From an uncultured Gammaproteobacteria bacterium (lineage in GTDB: Bacteria > Patescibacteriota > Patescibacteriia > UBA9934 > CAZDDW01), in assembly GCA_965231015.1 (NCBI GenBank), contig OZ246408.1:620115-684114 (forward strand): a stretch of DNA of 64,000 nt, written 5' to 3'. The position numbers were made by a program, and so were the translations under genes. Shown piece after piece: positions 5,243-51,000 of the stretch (within the stretch, counting starts at the first letter, position 1; each line of letters begins with the position of its first letter). Below the pieces are notes generated by a model. That model was not told where the DNA came from, ran no database searches, and was given only the letters and a program-made list of their open reading frames with translations.

Positions 5243-6487
5243 ATGAAAACAATACGTCAATTTGATTCAAAGATAGCCGATTCCCTTGAAAGAGAGCTTA
5301 ATCGACAACGTGAAGGATTGGAGATGATTCCTTCAGAAAATTTTGTTTCCGAGGCCGTTCTTGAAGCCCTTGGGTCTGTTGCTACGAATAAGTACGCCGA
5401 GGGTCTGCCCAAAAAACGTTACTACGGAGGGTGTGAATTCATCGATGAAATTGAAAACCTGGCTCGCCAGCGAGCTAAAAAACTCTTTCAAGCAGAACGA
5501 GTAAATGTGCAACCACTTTCCGGAGCACCGGCCAACGTGGCGGCTTACTCGGCTCTTATGAATCCGGGTGACACTATTTTAGGAATGGATCTGGCTCACG
5601 GTGGGCACCTGACGCATGGCTCACCAACCACCTTCATGTCCAACATCTATCACTTTGTTCGATACACCACAACCAAGACGGGTGAAATTGATTATGACGA
5701 TATTGAGGCCAAGGCTCGTGAACATAAACCAAGGGTTATTCTGGTCGGTTATTCAGCATATTCAAGAGAAATTGATTACGAGCGAATTAAAAAACTGGCG
5801 GATGAAGTCGGTGCCTACACCATGGCTGACATGGCTCACATTGCCGGGCTAATTGCGGCTGGCGAAATGAGCAATCCGGTGCCGATTTTCGACGTGGTGA
5901 CCACAACTACTCATAAAACCTTACGAGGACCACGTGGTGGGATGATTATGTGCAAGGATGAACATTTTACTGCCATCAACAAGGCTGTATTCCCTGGACT
6001 ACAAGGCGGACCACACGAAAACAATATTGCTGCCAAGGCCATTGCGTTTAAAGAAGCTATGGAACCCGCATTCAAAGATTATGCACACCAGATCAAAGCC
6101 AATGCCAAGGTTTTAGAAACTGAGTTCAAGGCTCGAGATTATAAGTTGTGTTTTGGTGGGACTGACAACCATCTCTTGCTGATCGATGTCACACCAAAAA
6201 ACGTCACCGGACAGATCGCTGAAAGTGCACTCGATAAAGCCGGCATCACCGTTAACAAAAACATGATCCCTAATGACGAACGAGCCCCAATGGATCCTTC
6301 CGGCATCAGACTGGGAACTCCAGCGCTCACCACTCGCGGCATGAAAGAAGACGAAATGAAACAGATTGCCGGTTGGATTGATGAGGCCATTACCAATCAC
6401 GACAAAGAAACAAAACTCGCGGAGATTCGCGAGGCAGTAAAACAATTAACTAGCCAGTTCCCACTTTATCCGGAACTGAAATATTAA
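5243..6487 (+). CDS. glyA: Serine hydroxymethyltransferase
   Basis: 414 aa, MKTIRQFDSKIADSLERELNRQREGLEMIPSENF...TTTTHKTLRGPRGGMI, containing the PLP-lysine motif. This is textbook SHMT. Confidence 0.95.
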   Translation: MKTIRQFDSKIADSLERELNRQREGLEMIPSENFVSEAVLEALGSVATNKYAEGLPKKRYYGGCEFIDEIENLARQRAKKLFQAERVNVQPLSGAPANVAAYSALMNPGDTILGMDLAHGGHLTHGSPTTFMSNIYHFVRYTTTKTGEIDYDDIEAKAREHKPRVILVGYSAYSREIDYERIKKLADEVGAYTMADMAHIAGLIAAGEMSNPVPIFDVVTTTTHKTLRGPRGGMIMCKDEHFTAINKAVFPGLQGGPHENNIAAKAIAFKEAMEPAFKDYAHQIKANAKVLETEFKARDYKLCFGGTDNHLLLIDVTPKNVTGQIAESALDKAGITVNKNMIPNDERAPMDPSGIRLGTPALTTRGMKEDEMKQIAGWIDEAITNHDKETKLAEIREAVKQLTSQFPLYPELKY

Positions 6488-6491
6488 AAAT

Positions 6492-6950
6492 ATGAAAAAG
6501 CTTTTGATTATCCCCCTTGCATTTGTGTTATTGATGGGAGCCGGATGCAACCAGCCACCCGTCGAGACCACAAATGAACTTGAGTCTGAAACCATATCTG
6601 AGACTGAAACCGCAGTACCCGACTACGTTGGTACATGGTTTAGAGAACAAATCATTGTTGACGGGGTTCCTGAAGTCGGTCCGGTTGATGCTAATCTTGT
6701 ATTCGAAGAAGACGGTAAGGGGTCGTTTCATTCAGAAACTGATCTCTGTTATGTAGACGGAACTGTCGAAGTTACCGGAAATTCAGTTCACATGTTAACT
6801 GATGAGTCTGACTGTCCAGCTGAAGCGGTTGCCATGACGTCTGACATTACATATGAATATGAGGTTAGTGAGGACGGGCAAACCTACACCCACACGACGG
6901 TATTTTCAGGAGTGACTATCACAGAGGTTTACTCACGAGTGTCTGAATAA
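6492..6950 (+). CDS. Hypothetical lipoprotein (152 aa)
   Basis: Signal peptide with lipobox: MKKLLIIPLAFVLLMGAGC. The acidic mature part has no recognisable family. The start is 4 nt after the glyA stop. Confidence 0.6.
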   Translation: MKKLLIIPLAFVLLMGAGCNQPPVETTNELESETISETETAVPDYVGTWFREQIIVDGVPEVGPVDANLVFEEDGKGSFHSETDLCYVDGTVEVTGNSVHMLTDESDCPAEAVAMTSDITYEYEVSEDGQTYTHTTVFSGVTITEVYSRVSE

Positions 6951-6962
6951 AAGACAATAAAA

Positions 6963-6993
6963 ACCACCCGGTAAATTCCGGGTGGTTTTTTTA
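6963..6993. terminator. Bidirectional intrinsic terminator between convergent genes
   Basis: Perfect hairpin ACCACCCGG-TAAATT-CCGGGTGGT followed by TTTTTTT, lying between the 6950 stop (+) and the 7000 stop (-). Confidence 0.65.
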
Positions 6994-6999
6994 ATTTAC

Positions 7000-8691
7000 T
7001 TATTTCTTTTGTTGAACTGGTTTGGCTGGTTTTTCTCCATTCTTGGGTCTATCATCATAGTGTTTAACTCTTCGTAAAACCAGCCAACGCAACAGAATAA
7101 TGATCAAGGCCGCGATAATTCCCCAACAGTAGTTCACAAGAATTGCAATGACTACCGGAATTAAGAAGGCCAACACCGGAAGCATGTAATACACCACCAT
7201 TCGCTTTTCATTCAAACGTTTCTTTTCGTTATAAATCCGTCGTCGGAACCATGAAACGGTTGATAGAATGACCCCAACAATCAAAATCCATAACAACCAA
7301 GGGCAAATCCAGGAACACACGCCTGGTAAAAACATGCAGGCACAACATGTTCCACTGGTGGCCGCGGCTGATTTATCATCGTCATCAACTGGAGCAGTAA
7401 CACTGGAACAACCCCCACAGTCATCCGGACAGTTTACACAAGTCTCATCCGGCTGACACACATCATCACCACACGTATCCGCACACTCACCACAATCTGC
7501 GGAGCAACTCTCACAATTTTCCCCACATTCTAAACGACATTCTCCGTCACCACAATACTTATCGCGGCACGGGTCACATTCACCACAATCATCCGGACAA
7601 TTTTCGCACCCCTCTCCACACTGACTATCACAAACCCCGTCTCCGCAATCACTATCACACTGATCCGGATCTAAGCATTCCCCACAATCACCCGGACAAT
7701 TTTCACACCCTTCGTCACATTCAGGTACACACATTCCATCACCGCAGGTTGAATCGTCACACGGACTTGGCTCATAACACTCACCACAGTCATCAGGACA
7801 CGTGTCACAAAATTCGTCGCACTCTTCCTGACACACTCCATCACCACAATCTACTTCAGCACACGGATCCTCTTCACACTCTCCACAGTCCCATGGACAA
7901 TTGTAGCAGGTCTCGTCACACTCCGGCTGGCAAACACCGTCACCGCAGTCTACAAAATCACACTCACCATGTGGCTCATCACCCGGACACTCACCACAAT
8001 CACCCGGACAGTTTTCACAGGTCTCGTCACACTCCGGCTGGCAAACACCGTCACCGCAGTCTACAAAATCACACTCACCGTGCGGCTCACCACCAGGGTC
8101 ATTAGTGGTTTCCTGACAATTGGCTCGAACTTCGGCTTCAGTTTGGTAAACACTGATTGCTAAACCGGTTCCGGGCACACACATAGGTTCTGAAACATAA
8201 TCTATTCCATACCAGCCAGTTGACGGATCATGATAACAACACCAAACCGGCCCCCCGGTTTGATCCCCCGGACACTCACCACAATCATCCGGACAAGAAT
8301 CACACGCCTCATCACATTCCTCATCACAAACCCCGTCTCCGCAGGTTACTTCACCACATGGGTCATCACCGGGACACTCTCCACAATCTTCCGGACACCA
8401 GGTGCATTCTTCGTCACACTCGATGTCACATACACCATCACCACACACAACCCCGTCACAAGGACCGGGTTCCTCCTCCTCGTGTTGGCAACATTCAGGA
8501 AAAGCAATACAACACTCATCCTGACAAGCCGTGTCTCCCTCACAACCAATATAACAATCATCAAAATATGGTTGTGACTCTCCACACTCGGAATACCCAT
8601 TCATGGCCTCAGCCGGAGCTACACCCGGCAAAAATAAAAACAGGCCAAGAATCAGTCCTGCTAATGCAGATAACCTAAAATACTTTGGCAT
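7000..8691 (-). CDS. Cysteine-rich tandem-repeat membrane protein (563 aa)
   Basis: Signal peptide MPKYFRLSALAGLILGLFLFLPGVAPAEA. At least 13 repeats follow, of the form CGDGVCxxECDExCxxCPxDCGEC with 6 Cys in ~27-37 aa. A poly-D linker and 2-3 C-terminal TM helices with a basic tail complete the protein. Confidence 0.7.
   Translation of the reverse strand: MPKYFRLSALAGLILGLFLFLPGVAPAEAMNGYSECGESQPYFDDCYIGCEGDTACQDECCIAFPECCQHEEEEPGPCDGVVCGDGVCDIECDEECTWCPEDCGECPGDDPCGEVTCGDGVCDEECDEACDSCPDDCGECPGDQTGGPVWCCYHDPSTGWYGIDYVSEPMCVPGTGLAISVYQTEAEVRANCQETTNDPGGEPHGECDFVDCGDGVCQPECDETCENCPGDCGECPGDEPHGECDFVDCGDGVCQPECDETCYNCPWDCGECEEDPCAEVDCGDGVCQEECDEFCDTCPDDCGECYEPSPCDDSTCGDGMCVPECDEGCENCPGDCGECLDPDQCDSDCGDGVCDSQCGEGCENCPDDCGECDPCRDKYCGDGECRLECGENCESCSADCGECADTCGDDVCQPDETCVNCPDDCGGCSSVTAPVDDDDKSAAATSGTCCACMFLPGVCSWICPWLLWILIVGVILSTVSWFRRRIYNEKKRLNEKRMVVYYMLPVLAFLIPVVIAILVNYCWGIIAALIIILLRWLVLRRVKHYDDRPKNGEKPAKPVQQKK
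7909..8079 (-). repeat. Near-perfect 111-bp tandem duplication inside the Cys-rich gene
   Basis: A 60-bp core GGTCTCGTCACACTCCGGCTGGCAAACACCGTCACCGCAGTCTACAAAATCACACTCACC occurs at 7909-7968 and again at 8020-8079, a 111-bp period (37 aa). The protein shows the duplicated unit CGECPGDEPHGECDFVDCGDGVCQPECDETC. Confidence 0.7.
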
Positions 8692-8769
8692 AAGCCTTTT
8701 TATTATTTAATTTTAGAAATTATTATGTATATTTTACAGGAAAAAGTCATGTTTTTCAACTAAAACTGT

Positions 8770-9105: not shown

Positions 9106-9134
9106 TTGACTTTTTGGCCAATTTAAGGTATGGT
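9106..9134 (+). promoter_or_regulatory. Sigma70-like promoter TTGACT-17-TATGGT for folD (near-leaderless)
   Basis: TTGACT at 9106-9111, a 17-nt spacer, and TATGGT at 9129-9134. The folD ATG at 9145 is only ~10 nt from the -10 element and has no SD. Confidence 0.35.
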
Positions 9135-9144
9135 TTGGCTTGTT

Positions 9145-9966
9145 ATGGCAAAAATCATTGATGGAAAAAATTTGGCCTCCGAGATTCGCTCGGAAATAAA
9201 AACACGAATTGCCTCTAGTGGGATCCGTCCGGGTCTGGCCGTTCTTTTAGTTGGTTCTGATCCAGCGTCTCATTGTTATGTCGGAATCAAAGAAAAAGCC
9301 TGCGCTGAAGTCGGAATCAATTCAGAAAAATATCTATATTTTGCCAGTGAACCTGAAGAAAAACTAATTGAAAAAATAAAGGAACTGAACTCTCGAAATG
9401 ATATCAACGGAATCCTGGTTCAACTCCCATTACCTAATCAAAACAAGGACAAAGTCATTGCCGCCATTGATCCGGCTAAAGATGTTGATGGTTTTCACCC
9501 TGATAATTTATCTAAACTGGATTCAGACGAACCACACATGATTTCCCCGGTCGCCCTTGGGGTTATGAAGATGATTGAATCAACCGGTCGACCGATTACC
9601 AAGTCACGAGCTGTATTTATTGGGTCCAATCTTTTTGCCAAACCAATCGCCCACTTACTCCAAGAGCACGACGTTGAACTCGAGACAGTTGATCGAAATT
9701 CACCAAATCTTGAGCTGAAAACCCAAAAGGCAGATATTCTAATTGTCGCGGCCGGCCGGCCGAACCTTATCAAGGGCAACATGCTAAAACCGGGAGCAAT
9801 CGTAATTGATATCGGCACTACGAAAGTTGACGGCAGGATTGTCGGAGATGTTGAGTTTAGCTCTGCTGAGCCGGTTGCTGGCTGGCTGAGCCCGGTTCCT
9901 GGTGGGGTTGGACCAATGACCGTGGCTTATCTACTGGTAAACGTCCTGAAAGCGACTAAAAAATAA
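9145..9966 (+). CDS. folD: Bifunctional methylenetetrahydrofolate dehydrogenase/cyclohydrolase
   Basis: MAKIIDGKNLASEIRSEIKTRIAS...ILVQLPLP...GGVGPMTVAYLL, the canonical FolD domains. The start is placed at the ATG at 9145; the track ORF begins upstream in frame. Confidence 0.9.
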   Translation: MAKIIDGKNLASEIRSEIKTRIASSGIRPGLAVLLVGSDPASHCYVGIKEKACAEVGINSEKYLYFASEPEEKLIEKIKELNSRNDINGILVQLPLPNQNKDKVIAAIDPAKDVDGFHPDNLSKLDSDEPHMISPVALGVMKMIESTGRPITKSRAVFIGSNLFAKPIAHLLQEHDVELETVDRNSPNLELKTQKADILIVAAGRPNLIKGNMLKPGAIVIDIGTTKVDGRIVGDVEFSSAEPVAGWLSPVPGGVGPMTVAYLLVNVLKATKK

Positions 9967-19771: not shown

Positions 19772-21514
19772 TTATTCACTAAATGAAGTAGTGCGGTAAC
19801 GCGAATAATCAACACCGGTTTCTTGCCAGTCATTACTTGCCAATCCTGCTTTTTCAGACAAGGCGGTCATAAAATCCTCAAAAGTATCCATTTGTTCCCA
19901 TACGCTAGGCAAAAAAGTGGCACTATCTTCCCCCTTGGTTAGAATTACTCCATCCATATTTGGTTGAATAATGTTCAATTCAACTGCTTGAGCTTCAGAT
20001 AAAACAGAGATTTCAATCTTGATGTTTACCAACTCTTCCTCGGTCACCGCCTCAAACCGAGCATCATTAACCGCTGCATCAATAGCCTTGTCACGCACTG
20101 CCAAATAAAGCGGCTGCTCCGCCGTCAGACTACCAATACACCCTCGTAACTCATCTTGAGCCTCAAGCGTCACAAAGACGGCCAACTCCTGCTTCAACTG
20201 CTCATCTGTTGGTTCAATCGGTTCATAGATTTCACCTTCACGGGTTATATACCGCTCAATTGTAGACCGAGCCAATTGTAAAAGGTATGTCTGCTCGGCT
20301 TCAGACAAACTCACGGTGTTAAGTCCAACCTCTTCACCCGGTACACTATAAGCCACGGCCCCATAACCAACTACTCTGGTATCATCATTGGTTACATCTC
20401 CGGTGTTTGCATAATCCAACACCTTGGCTTCCCATCCTTCGCGACGTGCCATTATGTCAGCAACCAAAATCGGGTCAGTTCCACACGCGTTAACCTTAGA
20501 AGCGTCCGGTTCAAGCCCTTCAATAGCCTGTAAAGTGGTTTGATCAATCGGTTCAGCTGTTTCTGCATCCATATAATGAGACAAATCACTGCTAACAACT
20601 AACAATGTTTTTTCATCCATTATTTCTTTGAGCTCATTGGCAATCGTGATTCTGTCTTCATCTTCAATTTGACCGACCAAAATCGGAATAATGGTCGCAT
20701 CCGGCCAAATGTACTGAATAAAAGGCAGATGAATTTCAACAGGATGTTCATCTACAAACGCCACATCCTTGTAAAAAAACAATTCGTTGTCAACCAGATC
20801 AACATTTGATTCATCAATATCCGTTTCTCCGAGTGGGGTTCGCCAAGCATCATACTCGCTTAAAGCCACCCCCTCGAACTCTGTTTGGTGAGCAGAAGCC
20901 ATAATAATGACTCGATTGTAATCCTTGTTCATAACAGTCTTGTAGGCAGAGGCGTCTACGGATCCGGAGTAACGGTAAGCGGCGTGTGGAGCAATAATTG
21001 CCATCACATCCCTATTTTCGACTTTGTTGGTTGCATTCCAAAGTAGAGACTGAATTTGTTTTTCTAGAATTGATTTGCCTTCCGGATAAAATACTCCGGC
21101 CACACTTGGTGGGCGTACGTCTTTGGCTGGCATAGGCTCTTCGATTATTTCTTCTACTACCGGCTCAGTTTCTTCCTCTGAACTTTTGGTTAAAAATTCC
21201 AAGGAAGCTACTGCAACCAGCGAAAGAAAAACAAACACCACAGCAACAATCACCTTAGCCGGCGATTTCTTTTGCCCTGGTTCCTTGGTCTTTGTGGTCT
21301 TCTTACTCGACTTCTTTCTGGACTTTGACTTCTTGGTCGTTTTTTTAGTCCGAGTCTTCTTTGTGGAGGCTTTTCTGGTTTTTTTCTGCTTAGTCTTTTT
21401 TGGAGGTTCCTCCTGAACCTCTTCCTCCACGACTTCAGCTTTCTTCTTGGAACTTTTTTTAGCGGCCGATTTCCGTGGAGTCTTTTTCACAGTTTTTTTC
21501 TTAGTGGCGGCCAT
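19772..21514 (-). CDS. Fusion protein: Lys-rich histone-H1-like tail + TM + Memo-like (AmmeMemoRadiSam protein B) + AMMECR1 domain
   Basis: 580 aa. The N-terminus is KKKTVKKTPRKSAAKK repeats. The Memo region is AGVFYPEGKS...IIAPHAAYRYSGSVDASAYK. The C-terminal AMMECR1 region is FVTLEAQDELRGCIGSL...ARFEAVTEEEL. Confidence 0.65.
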   Translation of the reverse strand: MAATKKKTVKKTPRKSAAKKSSKKKAEVVEEEVQEEPPKKTKQKKTRKASTKKTRTKKTTKKSKSRKKSSKKTTKTKEPGQKKSPAKVIVAVVFVFLSLVAVASLEFLTKSSEEETEPVVEEIIEEPMPAKDVRPPSVAGVFYPEGKSILEKQIQSLLWNATNKVENRDVMAIIAPHAAYRYSGSVDASAYKTVMNKDYNRVIIMASAHQTEFEGVALSEYDAWRTPLGETDIDESNVDLVDNELFFYKDVAFVDEHPVEIHLPFIQYIWPDATIIPILVGQIEDEDRITIANELKEIMDEKTLLVVSSDLSHYMDAETAEPIDQTTLQAIEGLEPDASKVNACGTDPILVADIMARREGWEAKVLDYANTGDVTNDDTRVVGYGAVAYSVPGEEVGLNTVSLSEAEQTYLLQLARSTIERYITREGEIYEPIEPTDEQLKQELAVFVTLEAQDELRGCIGSLTAEQPLYLAVRDKAIDAAVNDARFEAVTEEELVNIKIEISVLSEAQAVELNIIQPNMDGVILTKGEDSATFLPSVWEQMDTFEDFMTALSEKAGLASNDWQETGVDYSRYRTTSFSE

Positions 21515-25232: not shown

Positions 25233-26363
25233 TTATTCATTCGCGACGTATAACATGAACATCTCATTGATCGTGTGCCACTCCACGACCCCTTCTTCAA
25301 TATACTCATCTATCGCTTCGAGCCAAAGATCCAACACCTCGCTTTGTACTCGAACAGCACTACCAATGCTCCACGAAAGATACATAGTATTAACTGATTC
25401 ATCATCCATGTTCGCAATAAACTCATCCATCTGTTCAATAAAAACATCTACGTCATCCGGCCTTAGCCCTCCATCCCCTGTTCCATCACCAAACTCTTCA
25501 CTCATATTATACAGACTGCCAGCTTCCATAATAACAACCAGTTCACCATTTTCGTGATCAGTTAACCAATCTTTAGCCGAACTAACTCGCCATGGCTCAT
25601 CACGCTCAGCAATCTCATGAGGATATACATCATGACACTTAAGCGGGGTTGAACAATTTTTATACTCTTCCGGCCGATCTTCTTCATCCATGGCGGTCAC
25701 ACAATACGCCACAAGTCCGGTTGTAAACTTATACCCGGCCTTAATCACAGCCTCTGCCCAATCAATATGCGAACAGATTCCAGAAACGTGAATCACATCA
25801 AAGTCAACAATCTTTTGCAGATCCGTTTTCATGGTCTTGATACGGAAAGCCATACTTTCCACATTGATATCTTCATTTGGGTTTCCGCCCACGTCAGCAT
25901 GCACCCCAACAGCATGGCCACGGTCAACCAGCTCCTGCAAAATGTTTACATCCCATTTTCCAGACGCCTCAATGGTCTCGGGACTGGCCTCAAAAGTTCC
26001 TACAGCACCATACTCCTCAAGTTTATCAGCTAAGGTTCTTATTGCTTCAACATGACCCATGTATGATTCTTCATTATCAACTTCTTCAAACCAACCTTCT
26101 AAATGAATCATCATTCCAAGGTTCAAAGCATCAAGACCCTCACCGGTCAAATTATTTGTAGCTTCTTTACAATCCTCCGGACAGATGCCAGTCATTTTTT
26201 CTATTCGATCACAATCACCATCACCACACTTTAATCCGAAAGCTGAATCAACTCCTTCGGTTGTTTCGTCTTGATATGACGAATACCAATAAAAGGCGCC
26301 CAGGATTAAAACAATCCCTAAAAGAGCCAATAAGATGTAGAGTAAAAATTGTTTTTTATTCAT
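25233..26363 (-). CDS. Hypothetical membrane-anchored/secreted protein (376 aa)
   Basis: N-terminal signal-anchor MNKKQFLLYILLALLGIVLILGAFYWY. A Cys cluster CGDGDCDRIEKMTGICPEDC is present. No family recognised. Confidence 0.5.
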   Translation of the reverse strand: MNKKQFLLYILLALLGIVLILGAFYWYSSYQDETTEGVDSAFGLKCGDGDCDRIEKMTGICPEDCKEATNNLTGEGLDALNLGMMIHLEGWFEEVDNEESYMGHVEAIRTLADKLEEYGAVGTFEASPETIEASGKWDVNILQELVDRGHAVGVHADVGGNPNEDINVESMAFRIKTMKTDLQKIVDFDVIHVSGICSHIDWAEAVIKAGYKFTTGLVAYCVTAMDEEDRPEEYKNCSTPLKCHDVYPHEIAERDEPWRVSSAKDWLTDHENGELVVIMEAGSLYNMSEEFGDGTGDGGLRPDDVDVFIEQMDEFIANMDDESVNTMYLSWSIGSAVRVQSEVLDLWLEAIDEYIEEGVVEWHTINEMFMLYVANE

Positions 26364-26365
26364 AG

Positions 26366-27670
26366 CTACTTAGTTAATTCAACAATGATTTGATTGGAAT
26401 AAGTTCCACAAGATCCACCCAAGTACTCGCAAACACGTACATAGTAGGTTCCGTTGCCATCAAAAGCAGTCAGGCTAGCCGATGTTGTGGTGGGTGAACT
26501 AAAGTACTGATATTTGTCACCGCTTCGGGTTGGATAAGTTGGGCCAGGATTCTTAGACCAAACAACCTTGAATCCTTTTTCAGAATAACCGTCCACACTC
26601 CAGGAAACAGAGCTTCCAGATCCGCTAAGTGAGATCGAGATTCCATCGCTGGCCAAAACCTCATCATCAGATGTCTCTTGCTTAACTTCAACCTCCTTTT
26701 CTTCACCCAATCCACCGGTTTCTTCATCCTTGGTTGGCGCGGTCACCTGAACGTTGTCTGAGTAGGTTCCACAAACCCCACCTTCATAGTCACAAATTCG
26801 GAAGTAATAAGTCTTACCATCACGAAGATCCCAGATAGCGGTTCTTGATTCCGGATCATCTTCATAAAAATAATCGTCTCCGGGATAAACCGGGTCTGAT
26901 TCTTCACTTTTCACAATCTTAAAACCATATTCGGTTTCTATCCCTTCAACTTCCCAGCTAAACTTAATTCCCGTCTCGATCACCTCGGCTTCGAGCGTAA
27001 TTGACCCGTCTTCCTGTTCCACAATCGGTTCACCGTCTTTTTCGAAATTCCACTTTATAAATTCCACTTCTTTTTCTTCTTCTTCAATTTCTTTCACTTC
27101 GGCTTCACCAAGCAAGTACTTTTTGCCTTCTTCAACCACAACTGAATCCTTTCCTTCTTCAGTTACTTTCACCGAACTCTTATAAACATAAACTCCTTTT
27201 GAAGTATCCGTGCTTGAGGTCATAAAAGCGGTTCCAATGGCCTCGTAGCTTACCCCTTCACCCGCCACCTCAAAAATCCGTTCTCCGGATGTCACTCGAG
27301 CATAAAGCTCACCAGCCAAATTTTCAACTTGCAGATGATTTGGATCCAGGCTTGTTAACCTGATATGTGACTGCTCATTCATGCGCACAGCCGAACCATC
27401 ATCAAACTGAATAATTGCCCTAGCTTCTCCCATGGTTTCTACTTCGTACCCCTCATACAGATCTGTACTCACGTCAGCCCGTTTCCACTCTCCCTCCGGT
27501 GCTTTGACTTCAACAATCCCCTCAATATAAGAAAAGGCGGCTCCATTTTCGACAATCGTTTCCTCATCAGTGGTTTCATTGGAAGTCAAATAAATGTAAG
27601 CCAGTCCAATTACCGCCAGAACCACAACCAAGCTCAAGAAAGTCTTAATTGGCGAACTTGATTTAGCCAT
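26366..27670 (-). CDS. Membrane-anchored protein with FecR-like domain and two repeated C-terminal beta-domains
   Basis: 434 aa with an N-terminal TM helix. The segment AAFSYIEGIVEVK...AIIQFDDGSAVRMNEQSHIRL is FecR-like. Two similar ~90-aa units end TYYFRICDYEGGVCGTYSDNVQVT and TYYVRVCEYLGGSCGTYSNQIIVEL. Confidence 0.5.
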   Translation of the reverse strand: MAKSSSPIKTFLSLVVVLAVIGLAYIYLTSNETTDEETIVENGAAFSYIEGIVEVKAPEGEWKRADVSTDLYEGYEVETMGEARAIIQFDDGSAVRMNEQSHIRLTSLDPNHLQVENLAGELYARVTSGERIFEVAGEGVSYEAIGTAFMTSSTDTSKGVYVYKSSVKVTEEGKDSVVVEEGKKYLLGEAEVKEIEEEEKEVEFIKWNFEKDGEPIVEQEDGSITLEAEVIETGIKFSWEVEGIETEYGFKIVKSEESDPVYPGDDYFYEDDPESRTAIWDLRDGKTYYFRICDYEGGVCGTYSDNVQVTAPTKDEETGGLGEEKEVEVKQETSDDEVLASDGISISLSGSGSSVSWSVDGYSEKGFKVVWSKNPGPTYPTRSGDKYQYFSSPTTTSASLTAFDGNGTYYVRVCEYLGGSCGTYSNQIIVELTK

Positions 27671-42097: not shown

Positions 42098-45000
42098 TTA
42101 TTCTTCAATTAATGTATCAGACTCCTCAACCGGAGCTTCTTCAGGCTGGGCTGGCTCCTCTTCCACCACAGTTTCTTCCTGATCGGGATCAACATGTTGA
42201 GTCCCTACATCCTCTTCGACCTCTTCTTCGGTCATAGGCTCGTCATCTTCTACTTCTTCAACTACCTCCTCCTCTTCTTCTTCTCCTTCGGCTATCTCCT
42301 CATCAATTACTGGTTCTTCTTCAACCACCTCTTCCTCTTCTTCTACTGGTTCCTCTTCCTCCGGCTCTTCATCTATCTGTTCGTCCGGATCAACCATGCC
42401 TTCAACCGGATCATTTATATGACACTGGCCGTCCCAATAATAGTTTGTCAGCTGTTTGCACTCGTCCAGGGTATCACAGGCGTTCAAATTATCAACCCCA
42501 CACTCACCTTGATCAATAACCAGCTCAATTTCTTCAGTGGTTCCGTCTGAAATGAACAGCTTGGCATTATTTGAACCAAAAGCGTGCCAACTGAATTCAA
42601 CGCTCTCGCCATACATCTTATCTATCTCAATGTTAAATCCGGTTAAAGTTACATCTTTGATAATGTAGTCAATGTCCTCATGTAAATAGTTCATGAGAGT
42701 AGCAGTAACAATTGGTTGATATTGATACTCTTCCTCAAATTCAACCTGAACATTGGTCTCGTATTTCAGGATGCGAGCCAGACCAACCGTATCACCGTTA
42801 AAGGTAGTGTGTTTCTTTACCACCAAATTATCAACCTCGCCACTCATAACGAGAGTCGAACCACTTCCCTGTTCAACAGACTCAGTTTCTTGAATATCAT
42901 TCATACTATTTTGTATTGTCTCAATCACTCCCTGTTGATCCTGAATTGATTTCATCACAAGCGGAATAAAACTCTTATAATCCACCATCTTATACCCGTC
43001 CGAACGAGTGGTTACGGCAATTGGATAAATATCTTCAACCTGTTGAGCAATTACCCCGTGGTAGAATGTTTCATCATCGTCTGTAAAAGCTGATCTGTAT
43101 CGGAAATCCACAATCTCAACGGCCATTAAATCTTCAATGGAAAGTTCAGTAGCGGTGATATCCCGCTTCAAGCGCTCGTCTGACGGAGCTGTGGTATCAA
43201 TTGTATTTTGTCCAATGTAAAGAGTAGCTGAGCCTGTACCGTGGGTTTCGTCATCAATTAAATTATCCCCACTATCAACACCGATTGTCACACCAGAAGC
43301 TACCACTAATCCGCCGTTAGTTGGATCAGTGTCGCCAATACCAACGATTCCAGAACTAGATAAACGCATTACTTCTGAACCACTGGTTGAGAAGCCTAAA
43401 GTATCGGCCGAAATTCGGTACATTCCAGTGTTAGAGTCGTCGTTGAACCGGTATGATGGAGAACCAGCTGTTCCGTTTGCGTTAGCAAACGAACTGGCTC
43501 TAACTTGTCCAACAACCTGGAATTTAGTTGAAGGTGAGTCCGTACCAATTCCAACCCTCTCATTAGTAGTATCAATGTTCAAAATTGAAGTACCACCATC
43601 TGCATCTAAGAATTGGAAGCCGTTGGTTGAGTCAGTGCTATTTTGGAAAGTTAATAGATCATTAGTGGTATCGAAGGTTACTGCAGTTTCATCACCATCA
43701 GCCCCAATGTGTAAGGTGGCTGGGCCAAGATATAAATCCTGCCAACGAACTGTGCTTGAACCAAGGTCAAAGGTGTCATCTGCTGATGGAAGAAGGTCGT
43801 CACTTAATATAAAGGTTGTGGTATCGTGTCTTAAATATTCTGTTGTGGCATTGTTGTAATACAAGTACTCATCCAGGGTGATGTTACCATCAGCCTCAAT
43901 ATCATCGGCAACTAAAAGGTCGCTAGTCCCATCGATGTTGCTAGCCACACCACCTCCAACATCAAGCAGAGCCGCTGGACTGTCATCCCCAATTCCCACA
44001 TCTTCTAAAAAGTAGCTTTCCCCGGCTGAAACATAGAGGGCAAATCCACTACTTTGTGTATTTAGTTCCAATAAGTTTGCCGTGGCCGAAGAATTGGTGT
44101 CGCGGAAGCTGGCAAAAGCAGAAGCGGTCGCCGCTGTGCCTCGACGAGCATCAAATACGGAACCGGTACCATTATTGGTCAGGCTTATCATGTTAATGTT
44201 TGAATCTTGGTCAGCACTTAAAACACCCCCTGCGCCATTTTGATCAATCTCAATTGCGTTTCCGGTACCGTCATTTTGAATTTTCAAGACATCCTGATCT
44301 GAACCATCGTCTTCAGTAAATGATACTAGTGGTCCGTCAGCATCAACAGCCGCACGGCGTGAATACACATTCAAACCAATTCCCGGTGCATCGTTTCGAA
44401 CAAACAAAGCCCCGGATGAACTGGTGGCAAACCCAACATCACCAATTTGATCTATCAATAGCGCATTACCTGTACCATCATTGGTCAGATACATTACGTT
44501 TTGATCTGATGCACCATCCTCATAGAGCTCAAACAAGGCATCATCCGTGGTAGCTGCGTCTTCATTTCTGTATAAATAAAGTGCCCCGGCTCCGCCACCG
44601 GCCGTAACTCTTAAACTGGCGGCGTTATTGGTGCTAGCATCACCGATATGAGTAATCGACACAGCATAATTACTGGTGTCAGTTCCACGTACAGCCAACA
44701 TCTCAGAAGGACTATTGGTACCAATTCCCAAATATTTGTTTGTGTCGTCCCAGAAAAGGTTGGCATTATCTTCATCCAAATCCCCGGAAGCATCAGCAAA
44801 CATAACTGAACCGGTAGTAAAGCTAGAATCAAGAGAGCCGGACAAAGTTCCGTAAATTGTGCCATCGACTTCAAGGTCGTCGGCTACCAATAAGTCATCT
44901 GTTCCGTCGATGAAGTTAACAACTCCGCCACCGACATCTAACATGGCCGAAGGTGATGGATCTCCAATCCCAATATACCCCGTATTATCTGTGATCCTTA

Positions 45001-48000
45001 ACCTTTCCGTAGGTACCCCGACCCCATTATCTGTTGCAAAGCTGTGACGGGTGGTGGCATAGAAAGAGAAGTAACCATCTCCAAAGTCAGCGACACCATT
45101 ACTATCAGCTAAAATTTTAGTATTGTGAGCAGCATTTCCGATTTCAATATAATTTCCAACATTATCATACTGAATCGAACTAACGCTTGATCCTCCATCA
45201 TTAAAGTAGATCCAATCTGTTACTCGGATATCACCAGAGACATCAAGTTCAACCCCTGGTGTATTCGTCCCAATACCTAACCGATTATTGCCATCATCCC
45301 AGAATAAGTTGGTGTTATCTTGACTTAATAACCCGGAAGAACCGATAAACGGCATGGAGCCGGTAGTCATATCGGCAATGGATAACGTCTCACCGGTGTT
45401 TAATAACAGATCATCGCCCGGGTTGGTTGGTGATAAATCAGTTCCGGTCTTGGACCAATACGATGACCCTGCACCCAATGAGGCGGTATAAGTTCCAAGA
45501 GCGTTCAAAGCATGAACAATAGAGGTCGAGGTCTCACCGCCGGCACCAATTGTTGAACCAATAGATCCATCATCGGCAAAAATTTCCCCGGCATCATTTA
45601 ATAAATCGTCTCCAAGAGCAGAACCGGTCTGAGTAAAGTAAAGGCTTGGCTCTTGATTATCCCGGAAATGGATCAATCCTCCGCCACCAGATGAATCAGC
45701 GTTCAAAGTGATTAAAGCTCCGCCATTATTTACAGAATCAACTTCAAAATCAACTTCTGAATTACCATTTCCTGCCGTGGCGTGCACATAAAAACGAGCA
45801 TCACCGTTAGTTGACGGATTGTTGCTGATATTAAATTGAGCTATGGAGTCACCATTGGTATTCGTGTTTTGCAGATACACTTGGAAATCAGTGTCTCCGT
45901 TAGTGGAGTTAGAGGTTACCCCGCGATAAATACCTTGCACCTCATTTCCATCACCATTATCCTGAACTAAAAATTGAGCATACCGATTACCCGACATTAA
46001 CATGTCGTCTCCTGTGTGCATAGCCACTACTTGTGTATCAATTCCAATATCATCCGGGTCAATAAAGTTGAACAAACCAACCAGTCCGGTATTCCCTCCC
46101 AAACTTCCTTCGTTGGAATATGGATCAATGATTAAACCACCGGTTAAGGTTGTAAAGTCCACCCCGTCCCCTAGAACCGAATATCCTCCACCGGAATAAC
46201 TATTGTTCATGTAGGCGAGTCCGGATCCAAAATCAATGGCCGGCGGATTGTTGGTGACATCGTTTTGATTAATGGTCAAGGCGGCGTTATTGCTTGTATC
46301 CGGAACTGTAATTTCTACTGCCCCACTGTCCGCAGTGATTGATCGGCCGGCTCCGGCGCCGCCAGTGTCATATGACGCATCCAGAGTTCCGCCGCCGGCA
46401 CCGCCAAAATTCACCACGTAATTTCCCAAACTGTTCAGAGCATGCACAATAGACGTTGAGGTTTCACCACCTCCTCCTATGACTGAACCAAGCGTACCGG
46501 TTGAGCTAAAAATTTCCCCAGCACTATTCAACAAATCGTCTCCCAATGCCGAGTTATACTGCGTAAAATTCAGAGACTCGTTGTCATCCTCAAACTCAAT
46601 CCATGACCTTTGGTTTGGATCCAAGTCAGTGGTGGCCGATATAGTAATGTAGGCGTTTCCAACATATCCCACCCCTTCTTTGTCAGCCTCAATCCAGGTT
46701 TGAGCATCTCCACCGTCGTCGCTATTACGTGAACGTACATGGCTTACAGCATCACTAGAGCCACCGCCATCTGCAATTTCAGAATAAAATTGTGCCTCCA
46801 CATCGTTATCTGAACCAGCATTTTCTAAAGCGGCAATGGTGGCACTTCTGGTTGGCGTACCCGTAAAGAAGTTTTGATTAGAAGCATAAATGGCTGAACC
46901 TTGGGTTTCTCGACCGCTTGTGACCGCGCCGGTAAAATTATAGATTCCGGCTATCCCCATGTCACCGGCTGCAAAATAAGATTCATTGCCATAGGGATCA
47001 TAAATCAAACCACCGGTTGTGGTTCCCAAATCTGGTCCATCACTCATCATGAAAAAATTTGTGGTCAAATCAGCCTCAAGCACCTGCGGTCCGGTTCCGG
47101 AAAACTCGATCGAAGCTCCGCTGTCGGTGTTATTGGTGAGCTGTAAAACTGAAGATTCAACCGTGGTATCATTTTGAACGATTTCCAATCCAACATTACC
47201 AGAACCATCCGGTACAATGATTTGTACTTCATCAGAATCTGCCGTAATAATTCTTCCAGCCCCAGACCCACCGAAGTCATAAGCCATATCCAAAGTTCCA
47301 CCGGCTCCGGCACCAATGCCGGCGGCATATGTTCCGACCGCATTAATAGCGTGAATTAGCGAAAGTGAAGACTCGCTGAAACTTGATCCGATCGTACCGC
47401 TCGAAGAATAAATCTCACCAGGAGCGTTTAGTAAGTCTCCGCCCAGGGCAACACTATCTTGCGTCAAATACAAATTATTTTCTCTTTCATCAACAAAATA
47501 TACATCACCGTCCGGCGACAACAACTGAATTGTTGAAGTACCTCCGGCTGAAGCACTTAAAGTGATAGTTGAATCGTCGGCTATACTGTTATTTGCCTGA
47601 AGTAAAATAGTGGATTCACCGGACGTTCCGGTTGTTTTGCTTGCTCCGACTAAAAATTCTGCATCTCCGGTGTTCGTGGCACTAACCACGTTAAAAGTCA
47701 TGTCGCTGTCACCGGTTGCGGCTGATGTGGTGCGAGCATCAAAATCAATGGACACATCACCGGTTACATCGGTCTCGTTTAAAATAATTCTTGAGTAACG
47801 CGTGATAGTACCGCCGAAATCGTCATCACTATTATTCAAAACGATTTGTTGAGTAGGTACCCCGGCTGTAGCGGCACCAATAAAATTCATAATTCCGGAA
47901 AATCCCTCTGAACCACCAAGCGATGGGTCATTGCCGTACGGATCAATGAATAATCCTGAAGTTAGATCACTAAACTGGGCTCCGTTACCGACAATGCTCC

Positions 48001-51000
48001 AACCACTGGAAAGGTCGTTGGTAATAGCCGCGTAACCGGATCCGAAATCAATTCCACCCGGATAATTGGTCGTATCGTTTTGAGTGATTGATAAAGCGGC
48101 GGTGTTTGAGTTGTCAGGGACTGTAATTTGAACAGCCCCGCTGTCGGCTGTAATTAGTCGACCAGCTCCGGCACCGCCGAAATCATAGGCTTGATCAAGC
48201 GTTCCACCGGCTCCGGCTCCCAGACCGGCTGCATAAGTACCAACCGCGTTTAAAGCATGGACGAGTGAATCAGAGGTTTCACCAGAAACCGATCCGATCG
48301 TTCCGGTGGCTTCAAAAATTTCACCAGCGGCGTTTAATAAATCATCACCAAAGAAAGCACTGTCTTGGGTAAAAGCAAGGTCATCCCGCGTATCCGTAAA
48401 GCTGATAAAACCATCTCCGGTACCATTCAAAACCCGAGCCTGAATTGCTGTGTAAGCATTTCCGTTAGCGGCAACGTTATCAATATATGAACCAAGACTG
48501 GTGTAGGCATGGTGACCTAAATCTTCGTTTATAGATTTAATCTCTACAACTGCATCGTTATCTCCGGTTTCAGCTACCTCAGCGACTAATTGAGCCCGAA
48601 CGTCTTGTCCTCCTTCAGCATCAGTTTCCCAAAGGTATAAATACACAGAACGAGTTGGACTGTCGTTTGGAAAATCATTCATGGCTTGCATGAAAGACAA
48701 GGAACGATCTTGACTCGCCTCATCTGCTCCAATGTAATTTCCGAAACCGACGGCACCCTGATTCAAACCAGTATAAACTGGGTTGTTACCATATGGATCT
48801 ATCATGAATCCAGCATTTATATCTGCAACCGTAACATCGTCAGCTATAGCGATCCAATTACTGGTCAGGTCAGTTAAAAGCGAGTGTCCTCCAACACCGG
48901 TAAACTCAATCGCCGCCCCATCGCCGGCATTACTGATCGTTAAAGCTGACGGGTCATTTGTAGCATCATTTTGAGTAATGGTAAGCACGGAATGATTGGA
49001 ATTGTTCGGGGTAATGAATTGGATCGTTCCCGAGTCAGCCGTAATGGTTCTACCGTTACCGGCACCACCAAAGTCGTAAGCCTGATCCAGTGTACCACCG
49101 CCGCCGGCACCAATTCCGGCCGCATAAGACCCAACCGCATTCAGGGCATGTACTAAAGAATCGGATGTTTCACCAACACCTATTGAAGACCCAATGGTTC
49201 CAGTACTACTGAAGACCTCTCCCGGAGCATTTAACAAGTCATCACCCAAGCTAGAGCCGTATTGAGTGAAGGTCAGCTGGTCATTTTCGTCACGGAATGA
49301 AATCCATGAATCCATGGTGCCAGTATCATCAACCGCGGCTTCTAACTCAATATATGCATCTCCACTATTTCCGGCTCCACGTTTGTGAGCCTCAATGTGT
49401 ACGACCGAATCTCCACCATTATCTTCATGACTTGATTCTAAAACAGCTTCGGCGTCATCTGTGCCACCACCCGGTTCAATCTGAGCCAATGATCTGACTT
49501 CGACATTTCCATCTTCATCTGTTTCAAAAGCACCCACAACAGCCCAACGAGTTGGCGAACCGGTCAGATGGTTTGCGTTACCGGAATAATTAACTGATCC
49601 GGCTAAATTATTTCCGGCTGTTGCCGCTCCAACATAGTTATAATAACCGACCACCCCGTAACCAACCGCTGAAAAGGCCGGACTTACTCCGTAAGGATCA
49701 GCCAATAAACCGCCTGTTGACGTGGTGCCCATGTCGTTGGAGTCTCCCATAACATAATAATTGGAGGTAATATCTTCAAAAGTGGTTGAATAAACACTGG
49801 ATCCGGAAAAATGCAGACCAGATGCTCCGGAAGCATTGTTGGTAATCTGAACAGCCGGGTCAGTAGCCGCGGTATTGTTGTGCGTGGCTAAAAGACTGCT
49901 TCCTTGACTGTAGTTCCTAATCTTTAGTGCCGCGTCAGTAAAATCTTTTCCGTGTGTCACCTCTAAGGCACGCTCAGCCATAGGATTTCCAAAAGTCACA
50001 CTGCCTTCTAAAACATCCGCACTGACCGATTCAGCCGGAAATCCAGGATTACCTCCAATCACGGTTTGAACCGTTGCCACTGTTCCACTAGGATCAAGAG
50101 AAACGAGCTGGTACATACCATCATGAGCCGCTGAGCCAGACACCAAAAATGTTGTGGAAGCTGATTCTGTAATATTTAAACTGCGAAGATTAGTTGAAAA
50201 AGTGATTGTGTTTCCTGATAAAGTTACTGCCTCTGTCAATAATTCATAAGAACTGGTCAAACCAAGAGTTCTTTCATTTCCCATAATTGTCACACCGAAA
50301 GCAAATTCACCAACTGCTGGTTCAGAATTCACAACCAAGGTTGCAGGAAAATCAGTAAAGGTCGTCGTTCCAAGTCCAGAATTCAATTTTAGTAAAGAGT
50401 CACTAAAAGTAGCTGTTTCTGCTTGTCCGGCATCACTAATGTACACCGGCCCGCTGTCAGCTATAATGCTTCGCCCGACACCGGCACCTCCGGTATCATA
50501 TGACTGATCAAGCGTGCCGCCACCGCCACCTAACGAATCTACATATTCCTTATCAACCAAAGATCGGTTTGTGTAGTTTGATGAATAATCAGCTGCATAA
50601 ACAGCTCCTTCAAAACCAACTACATCACTGGTAATCGATATGTTTTCCGGAGAAACATCAAGACTGGTACTTGTAAGATTATTATCATCACTTCTTTCAA
50701 AAGACAGGTCATTTGTTCGCATCCAAGTATTCATGATTTCACCCGTAGCAGAATTCTCAGCCGTGTAGAAAACTCCTCCTGAATCCTGATTCAGTTCGCT
50801 AAAATAAATACCCGTGTTCATTGATTGAATCCATTCATCCTCCCCAATCTCTACCATCATTCCCGTATTCTCAATAATAAAATAATTTCCGTTCAAATCA
50901 AACGTACGATCTTCAGAAAGAGAACCGTCGGAATTGAAGATATTAATACTTGCATTATCTACATATTCCTTATCAACCAAAGATCGGTTTGTGTAGTCAG

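Follow-up and report, generated by a model that had tools for sequence, protein, structure and literature searches.

A cysteine-module protein of a Candidate Phyla Radiation bacterium appears to be a conserved surface stalk rather than a rapidly growing repeat array

A 64,000-nucleotide stretch of contig OZ246408.1 (assembly GCA_965231015.1; hereafter the window, whose numbering is used throughout) carries at 7000-8691 a gene for a cysteine-rich protein of 563 amino acids (aa), which looks like a conserved surface stalk and not like a fast-expanding repeat gene. We consider it rather probable that the product is a Sec-exported, C-terminally anchored, disulfide-stapled acidic stalk or adhesin of a Candidate Phyla Radiation (CPR) bacterium, probably one that binds cations. 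Three other explanations, in which the cysteines hold metal, the array varies its copies, or the frame is an assembly artefact, are all less likely. Among CPR bacteria, believed to live in attachment to other cells, secreted cysteine-rich proteins are well recognised but still lack an explanation.

Segmentation and hydropathy divide the protein, encoded on the minus strand, into an exported cysteine-rich region, built largely from a module named here CGDG after its first residues, and a C-terminal anchor. The features are as follows.

7000-8691, minus strand: whole gene of the 563-aa protein, from the list of open reading frames (ORFs); stop codon at 7000-7002
8602-8691, minus strand: predicted signal peptide, aa 1-30 (MPKYFRLSALAGLILGLFLFLPGVAPAEA, then M), from hydropathy and sequence
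8461-8601, minus strand: N-terminal acidic stretch with 8 Cys, aa 31-77, not a CGDG module, from segmentation
8257-8460, minus strand: CGDG modules R1 (aa 78-111) and R2 (aa 112-145), 8 Cys apiece
8074-8256, minus strand: "WCC" module, aa 146-206 (VWCCYHDPSTGWYGIDYVSEPMCVPGTGLAISVYQTEAEVRANCQ), 61 aa, starting VWCCY, 4 Cys
7474-8073, minus strand: CGDG modules R3-R8, aa 207-406, six in tandem, 30-37 aa and 8 Cys apiece
7399-7473, minus strand: CGDG module R9, aa 407-431, the canonical 6-Cys form CGDDVCQPDETCVNCPDDCGGC
7348-7398, minus strand: linker, aa 432-448 (TAPVDDDDKSAAATSGT), containing VDDDDK
7003-7347, minus strand: C-terminal anchor, aa 449-563, from hydropathy
8731-8759, minus strand: promoter-like site TTGAAA-17-TAAAAT upstream of the start codon, 10/12 in a consensus scan, a pattern match only
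6959-6990, unstranded: bidirectional terminator-like hairpin with a 13 bp stem, a pattern match only

The N-terminus is signal-like, with a basic n-region, a hydrophobic core and an AEA cleavage-like site. It has no twin-arginine motif, so export is expected to proceed via Sec, in the unfolded state. At the C-terminus three hydrophobic segments are followed by a basic tail, and the predicted topology is consistent with Sec-type export and C-terminal, positive-inside anchoring. Between these signals, the ectodomain (aa 31-448, 418 aa) has a pI of 4.05, with 82 Cys (19.6%), 121 Asp plus Glu (29%), only 5 Lys plus Arg, and an I/L/V/F/M/W content below 10%; the whole protein contains 88 Cys (15.6%), 68 Asp, 61 Gly and 59 Glu. 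The original prediction, made from the letters of this DNA, had described a membrane-anchored protein with more than 80 extracytoplasmic cysteines, a poly-Asp linker, transmembrane (TM) helices and a basic tail, and this description holds. Its count of more than 13 six-cysteine mini-repeats does not: segmentation gives nine CGDG modules, R1-R2 before the WCC module and R3-R9 after it, and only R9 has six cysteines. R1-R8 follow the pattern C0-x3/4-C1-G-D-G-x-C2-x3-C'-x3-C3-x2-C4-x3-C5-x2-C6. The number of cysteines is even in every unit: the N-terminal stretch and each of R1-R8 have 8, R9 has 6 and the WCC module has 4.

Relatives of the CGDG module were sought by a homology search of 5.8 billion proteins, in which 8000 candidates were scored and 212 matched at E<=0.001, with phmmer E-values reaching 1e-35 and better. 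Nearly all of the 212 carry a 6-Cys module, CGDGxC-x3-E-x-C-x2-CPxDCGxC, with as many as 17 copies per array, and their named sources are Myxococcota, Bradymonadia, "archaeon" metagenome-assembled genomes and Candidatus Uhrbacteria. Judged by sequence, the 6-Cys module is thus widespread, in hundreds of proteins of Myxococcota, archaea and CPR bacteria. From more than 100 proteins we define the family as tandem copies of C-G-[DN]-G-x-C-x5/7-C-x2-C-x3-C-x2-C in which the Glu two residues ahead of C3 is invariant and an Asp precedes C5. R9 fits this definition exactly, and R1-R8 fit it as a 7-residue-loop form with two extra cysteines. Two alignments were built, one of 70 four-module segments and one of 100 single modules; in both, six Cys and one Glu are invariant, and conservation reaches 90% or more at one Asp and two Gly.

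CGDG arrays are fused to trypsin, CAP, OmpA, PKD, SH3_3, CBM6, LTD, CarboxypepD_reg, FGE-sulfatase and DUF6209 domains, and the module also co-occurs with CARDB, with TSP_3 repeats and with an HExxH-motif C-terminal region. Such varied extracellular partners are the typical distribution of a structural spacer or stalk module, and suggest that role here. The 8-Cys form is rare, though it occurs elsewhere too; arrays with eight cysteines nearly throughout were seen only in the 563-aa protein and in its orthologue from a related strain (below). The window itself also encodes a 376-aa protein (25233-26363, minus strand) in which one 4-Cys CGDG module (CGDGDCDRIEKMTGICPEDC) comes after an N-terminal TM helix, which indicates that the minimal grade of the module is also used by the same genome; the remainder of this protein has no Pfam match except a sub-threshold RET_CRD, and the adjoining gene (26366-27670, minus strand) encodes a FecR plus fn3 protein.

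The repeat had been described as outside the known families, and this is supported. Scans of the 563-aa protein with Pfam-A and NCBIfam at E<=10 gave no family, only noise on the TM region, and no model in either library covered the repeats of homologues with 10-17 canonical copies. PDB sequences gave no significant match to the protein or to a 100-sequence repeat profile, a genome-contig scan returned a single Myxococcales repeat protein, and a literature search on the CGDG motif and TIGR02232 found no description of the repeat. A match to EGF, TB, anaphylatoxin, LNR, LDL-A or TIGR02232, any of which would have placed the repeat in an established family, did not appear in these Pfam and NCBIfam scans.

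One of the closest known likenesses is to DUF4215, the Myxococcus cysteine-rich repeat (TIGR02232 / PF13948, IPR011936), a prokaryotic extracellular cysteine-rich tandem repeat of about 30-40 aa whose function is also unknown (bioRxiv 10.1101/2023.03.06.531300). Its start, CG[DN]G-x5-E-x-C, is spaced as the first half of the CGDG module, and hhalign aligns 15 columns of the two (CGDGxxxxxExC; probability 39%, P 3e-4). The two repeats also occur in the same phyla and at times in the same proteins (e.g. P0116). Their second halves differ, DDGNxxxGDGCSxxC with 4 Cys in DUF4215 as against CxxCPxDCGxC and a total of 6 or 8 Cys in the CGDG module. Membership is contradicted by the scans above, in which the 563-aa protein gave no DUF4215 match while an 867-aa protein of the window, serving as a positive control, matched PF13948 at 1e-10; the two repeats had been called distinct, and they are. 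A remote common origin of DUF4215 and CGDG is possible. The 867-aa protein (53899-56502, minus strand) is an exported protein with two DUF4215 repeats at about aa 600-665, a Big_5 domain and a purple-acid-phosphatase N-like domain.

Cysteines at this density could be joined to one another or could hold metal, and the variation among modules bears on the choice. CGDG modules occur in three grades with the same spacing: four cysteines (C1, C2, C4, C5), six (adding C3 and C6) and eight (adding C0 and C'). Of 1000 modules from the match set, 812 have both C3 and C6, 129 have neither and 59 have one without the other, most of these 59 being one-residue shifts (odds ratio 329, Fisher p=4e-110). Because the two are gained or lost together with the rest of the module intact, a C3-C6 disulfide is suggested. 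The same paired logic points to an extra C0-C' staple, as C0 and C' co-appear in the 563-aa protein, in P0002 and in L030-type proteins (both described below). The paired gain and loss favours disulfides over metal, and the question is in this respect partly resolved.

In the alternative, the cysteine clusters would coordinate Zn, Cu, Cd or Fe-S rather than pair as disulfides, and the ectodomain would act outside the cytoplasm as a metallothionein-like metal sponge or as a redox-active polymer at the surface. A cysteine content of 19.6% would suit such a protein, as would the absence of any visible disulfide-forming enzyme from the 64-kb window and the four invariant core cysteines, whose pairing is unreadable from co-variation. 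C-x4-C-x5-C-x2-C weakly resembles the AZUL Zn finger of UBE3A, and CPxDCGxC the CX3CX2C motif of radical-SAM proteins (PDB profile matches at E about 5-6, non-significant, for each). Set against this are the joint gain and loss of C3 and C6 while the other four cysteines stay, the even number of cysteines in every unit, and the use of the same module as a spacer in many secreted enzymes. No metallothionein, zinc-finger or Fe-S family was matched in the Pfam and NCBIfam hidden Markov model scans. The signal peptide is also unfavourable to the metal alternative: Sec exports unfolded protein and is incompatible with pre-assembled Fe-S clusters, cofactor-loaded Fe-S proteins normally needing Tat, and the signal here has no twin-arginine motif. 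We therefore regard a metal-thiolate protein as unlikely.

If the disulfide assignment is right, each module would be a tiny knot without a hydrophobic core, held by C3-C6 and, in the 8-Cys form, by C0-C' as well. This would amount to some 41 disulfides across the ectodomain, at a density of at most 4 in 33 residues. AlphaFold2 modelling of R3-R6 with a 70-row alignment gave short helical turns only (mean predicted local distance difference test (pLDDT) 81.6, predicted template modelling score 0.33), which fits a string of confident beads whose mutual orientation is undefined. A Foldseek search of the PDB with this model returned only Notch NRR (LNR) chains (E 2-4, probability 0.02), and a fold search of BFVD returned nothing. 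The eukaryotic Notch LNR, LDL-A and cbEGF domains are likewise beads of about 35 aa with 3 disulfides, conserved acidic residues and no hydrophobic core, and are used in tandem as extracellular stalks or spacers; they differ from the CGDG module in cysteine spacing, and Ca2+ binding would be carried over to the latter only by analogy. On that analogy, each module probably holds a structural divalent cation through its invariant Glu and near-invariant Asp, a site suggested by the presence of these conserved acidic residues in a module with neither a catalytic role nor a hydrophobic core. The chain of beads may then form a stiff, protease-resistant, strongly negative rod projecting, by a rough estimate, some tens of nanometres through the wall, followed by the DDDD linker and a 3-helix membrane anchor with positive cytoplasmic loops. 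The most likely role would lie in surface architecture or in adhesion, be it to a host cell, to a mineral or to cations, and this is the weakest step of the proposal.

Several points weigh against the stalk reading. The disulfide connectivity is read from cysteine co-variation, and the core cysteines C1, C2, C4 and C5 never vary, so that a Zn(Cys)4-type site is possible there. Many CPR bacteria live without oxygen, which makes the source of some 41 disulfides a puzzle, and no thiol-oxidising enzyme was seen in the window. Both cation binding and the adhesive role are things we infer, and no recognisable ligand-binding domain accompanies the modules.

In the anchor, a juxtamembrane CCxC...C motif is followed by TM1, a basic loop (FRRRIYNEKKRLNEKR), a TM2-TM3 hairpin and a basic tail. 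AlphaFold2 places helices at aa 459-489, 498-519 and 521-546, with a pLDDT of 61.8, too low for a fold search. When aa 432-563 were searched with phmmer against 1.84 billion cluster representatives, five true members were found, namely the protein itself, P0002, P0122, P0123 and P0125 (E 3e-16, 1e-15, 3e-5 and 3e-4 for the non-self members), all of them singletons from metagenomes. The members share a juxtamembrane C...F...C, a TM1 joined through a charged loop to a TM2 that contains Pro, and a TM3 whose end reads R....R..[KR]..D, with invariant columns C19, F23, C32, W50, P81, A97, R104, R109 and D115, and the 563-aa protein conforms to this family. A metagenome-contig scan with the anchor alignment confirmed no relative. 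NCBIfam gave no match to the MYXO-CTERM, PEP-CTERM, LPXTG or PGF-CTERM sorting signals; in the present anchor the Cys motif, TM segment and Arg cluster are followed by two more TM helices. A C463-C522 disulfide joining TM1 to the hairpin was considered and dropped, C522 not being kept in P0123 and P0125.

The ectodomains carried by this anchor vary. P0002 combines CARDB with 2 WCC modules and 8-Cys CGDG modules, P0122 has at least 12 WCC modules, and P0123 and P0125 have other cysteine-rich domains. Pfam and NCBIfam scans that included P0122, P0123 and P0125 returned no model over the WCC module or the anchor, and a homology search with an alignment of the WCC module gave nothing at E<=0.01. 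The gene for P0125 (L004, 3566-6457) adjoins genes for a KaiC/RadB-like ATPase, TruD, a P-type ATPase and a Por_Secre_tail protein; if its host is archaeal (a bacterial one is possible), the anchor spans domains of life.

The WCC module was found again through the 8-Cys CGDG spacing. A DNA pattern scan of metagenomes for this spacing, in which most other matches were poly-Cys low-complexity DNA, recovered large secreted proteins on four contigs (L030, 4988-9091, plus strand; L031, 2297-6229, plus strand; L033; L039). In these proteins, which are 0.9-1.4 thousand aa long, an N-terminal CarboxypepD_reg-like domain, as in P0002, is followed by 1-7 WCC modules together with CGDG modules, one of which is an 8-Cys copy; calcium-binding TSP_3 repeats and a C-terminal HExxH domain are also present. 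The four proteins, P0002 and P0122 have in common with the 563-aa protein the WCC module and the CGDG module (8-Cys form included), and P0002 and P0122 have the 3-TM anchor as well. These uncatalogued relatives add CARDB, the CarboxypepD_reg-like N-domain, TSP_3 or HExxH, whereas the 563-aa protein consists of just cysteine modules and anchor. By this co-occurrence, the WCC module travels with the CGDG module, both serving as extracellular building blocks.

A fresh 111-bp tandem duplication with ongoing repeat expansion had been proposed here. The features that bear on this are a repeated tract in the window and the same locus in a related strain, recovered on two short-read (Logan) contigs from separate runs, L006 (SRR28370467) and L007 (SRR28370465), whose GlyA is 91% identical.

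7876-8097, unstranded: 111-bp tandem pair (7876-7986 and 7987-8097), covering most of R4 and R3 with linkers
7907-7968 and 8018-8079, unstranded: two copies of a 62-bp identical tract, a probable gene-conversion tract
9062-10009 of L006 and 3862-4809 of L007, minus strand in both: orthologue of the 563-aa gene, partial

The tandem pair exists, with 98/111 positions identical by direct comparison (88% in a repeat-family search), and the 60-bp identical core noted at 7909-7968 and 8020-8079 is contained in the 62-bp tract. Tandem Repeats Finder run on the window did not report the 111-bp period, whereas the separate repeat-family search did find the pair. The pattern is not the one expected of a fresh duplication: positions outside the 62-nt run are identical at just 36/49 (73%), and the remaining module pairs share only 61-82% of their DNA. 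Because a short perfect tract lies inside otherwise diverged copies, gene conversion between adjacent modules fits the R3/R4 mosaic better than a simple fresh duplication.

Comparison with the related strain runs against ongoing expansion. The L006 and L007 contigs end before the 5' half of the gene, so the comparison covers R4-R9 and the anchor, which align one-to-one with a single one-residue gap, in the linker. The orthologue is about 86% identical over this resolved part and keeps all cysteines of the window protein. The proportions of nonsynonymous (pN) and synonymous (pS) differences are 0.068 and 0.76, a ratio of 0.09 as against 0.081 for glyA in the same two genomes; raw proportions were used, synonymous sites being saturated and a Jukes-Cantor synonymous divergence not computable. 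These results argue strongly, at the level of sequence, for a constrained function and against a fast-varying array. A contingency locus, whose array would be in the course of gaining, losing or diversifying copies so as to alter a surface antigen or a phage receptor, would be in keeping with the identical tract inside the tandem pair, with the strain variation noted for such proteins in Peribacteria (PMC4736985), and with the different content of the glyA-folD interval in distant relatives. However, modules have stayed one-to-one while pS reached 0.76, selection is on par with that on glyA, the other module pairs are well diverged, and 73% identity around the tract makes a mosaic and no clean new copy. 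Such a locus thus appears quite improbable.

The L006 and L007 contigs stop at the same base, inside the CGDGVCQPECDE core of the R4-equivalent module. The shared break suggests, as an inference, that the related strain also has a repeated tract at R3/R4, i.e. concerted evolution. Breaks in two samples also mean that the region is hard to assemble, and could be taken to indicate that the copy number, or even the whole frame, is mis-assembled repetitive DNA. The window gene itself speaks otherwise: 563 codons are open with all cysteines in register, a signal peptide, anchor, promoter-like site and terminator-like hairpin are all found, the orthologue is under purifying selection, and the anchor and WCC module are kept in independent metagenomes. 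The identical tract, at 62 bp, can be spanned by ordinary reads, and the gene lies on a 1.0 Mb contig; an identical protein (P0001) is listed in an NCBI-derived collection, on a contig of 1,002,985 bp. An assembly artefact or non-functional ORF is accordingly extremely unlikely, and the 563-aa ORF is a genuine gene.

The gene lies between glyA (5243-6487) and a small exported-protein gene (6492-6950) on one side and folD (9130-9966) on the other, with murB, murC, dnaB, recR, uvrABC, clpB and mraW among other genes nearby. The terminator-like hairpin at 6959-6990 sits between the 563-aa gene and a convergent 152-aa gene. Given this bidirectional hairpin and the promoter-like site at 8759-8731, the gene looks monocistronic. 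The best named relatives of the window GlyA are from Candidatus Uhrbacteria and "Patescibacteria group" bacteria (74-86% identity), and these sequences, taken with the contig, make the host a CPR (Patescibacteria, Uhrbacteria-like) bacterium whose genome measures about 1 Mb. In a relative further removed (L008, 1819-3994; GlyA 80% identical), the glyA-folD interval holds different genes, including one for a 220-aa N-terminally anchored, cysteine-containing protein unrelated to the CGDG protein, and on L009 and L010 the 563-aa gene is absent from the locus. From this distribution it is an accessory gene restricted to a lineage, and the glyA-folD interval acts as an islet of variable content for surface proteins.

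Other observations were made in the window. A 3566-aa ORF (42098-52798, minus strand) has as its sole Pfam match Peptidase_S74, an endosialidase/tail-fibre-type intramolecular chaperone, at aa 3206-3262; it may be a very large fibre-like protein of the surface that cleaves itself, encoded in a genome of 1 Mb. Memo-like and AMMECR1 domains are joined in a single ORF of 580 aa (19772-21514, minus strand). Over positions 1-64000, all 2-kb bins have a negative GC skew (cumulative -5.07), and the minus strand carries most of the long ORFs; the window as a whole seems to belong to a single replichore.

Cysteine-rich tandem-repeat surface proteins are already known from Myxococcota and CPR bacteria. 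In Candidatus Peribacter riflensis, cysteine-rich extracellular proteins bearing signal peptides were proposed to provide rigidity or attachment; they average 1,655 aa, have 7% Cys and are encoded in a 14-gene block (Anantharaman et al. 2016, PMC4736985). The stalk reading agrees with that proposal, and the two cases are alike in a CPR host, a genome of about 1 Mb, very cysteine-rich, predicted extracellular or membrane-associated proteins, and a resemblance to Myxococcus repeat proteins that is only weak. The likeness is one of description: the 563-aa protein has 15.6% Cys, is encoded by a single gene between glyA and folD, and belongs to another CPR lineage. New here are a module family absent from the searched libraries, its unusual 8-Cys grade, a second unmatched module and a very rare anchor.

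Two bolder versions are, even taken together, very doubtful. In one, set in an anaerobic CPR bacterium that has no obvious oxidant for some 41 disulfides, the module would be a thiolate metal site, perhaps besides a disulfide knot, and the protein an extracytoplasmic metal-storing or electron-conducting surface polymer; this polymer would stand on a previously undescribed 3-TM anchor common to a handful of uncultured prokaryotes. In the more modest one, CGDG, WCC and the anchor would be three new domain families forming a prokaryotic counterpart of EGF/LNR-type stalks for the attachment of episymbionts.

The proposed disulfide-stapled stalk does not overturn current understanding; it is chiefly of use for annotation and as an object for structure determination. 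Family definitions for the three modules would allow hundreds of "hypothetical" surface proteins to be annotated, and the nested 4-, 6- and 8-Cys grades offer a natural experiment in disulfide stapling. For the biology of these bacteria, the protein raises the question of how a minimal, often anaerobic cell would oxidise dozens of disulfides.

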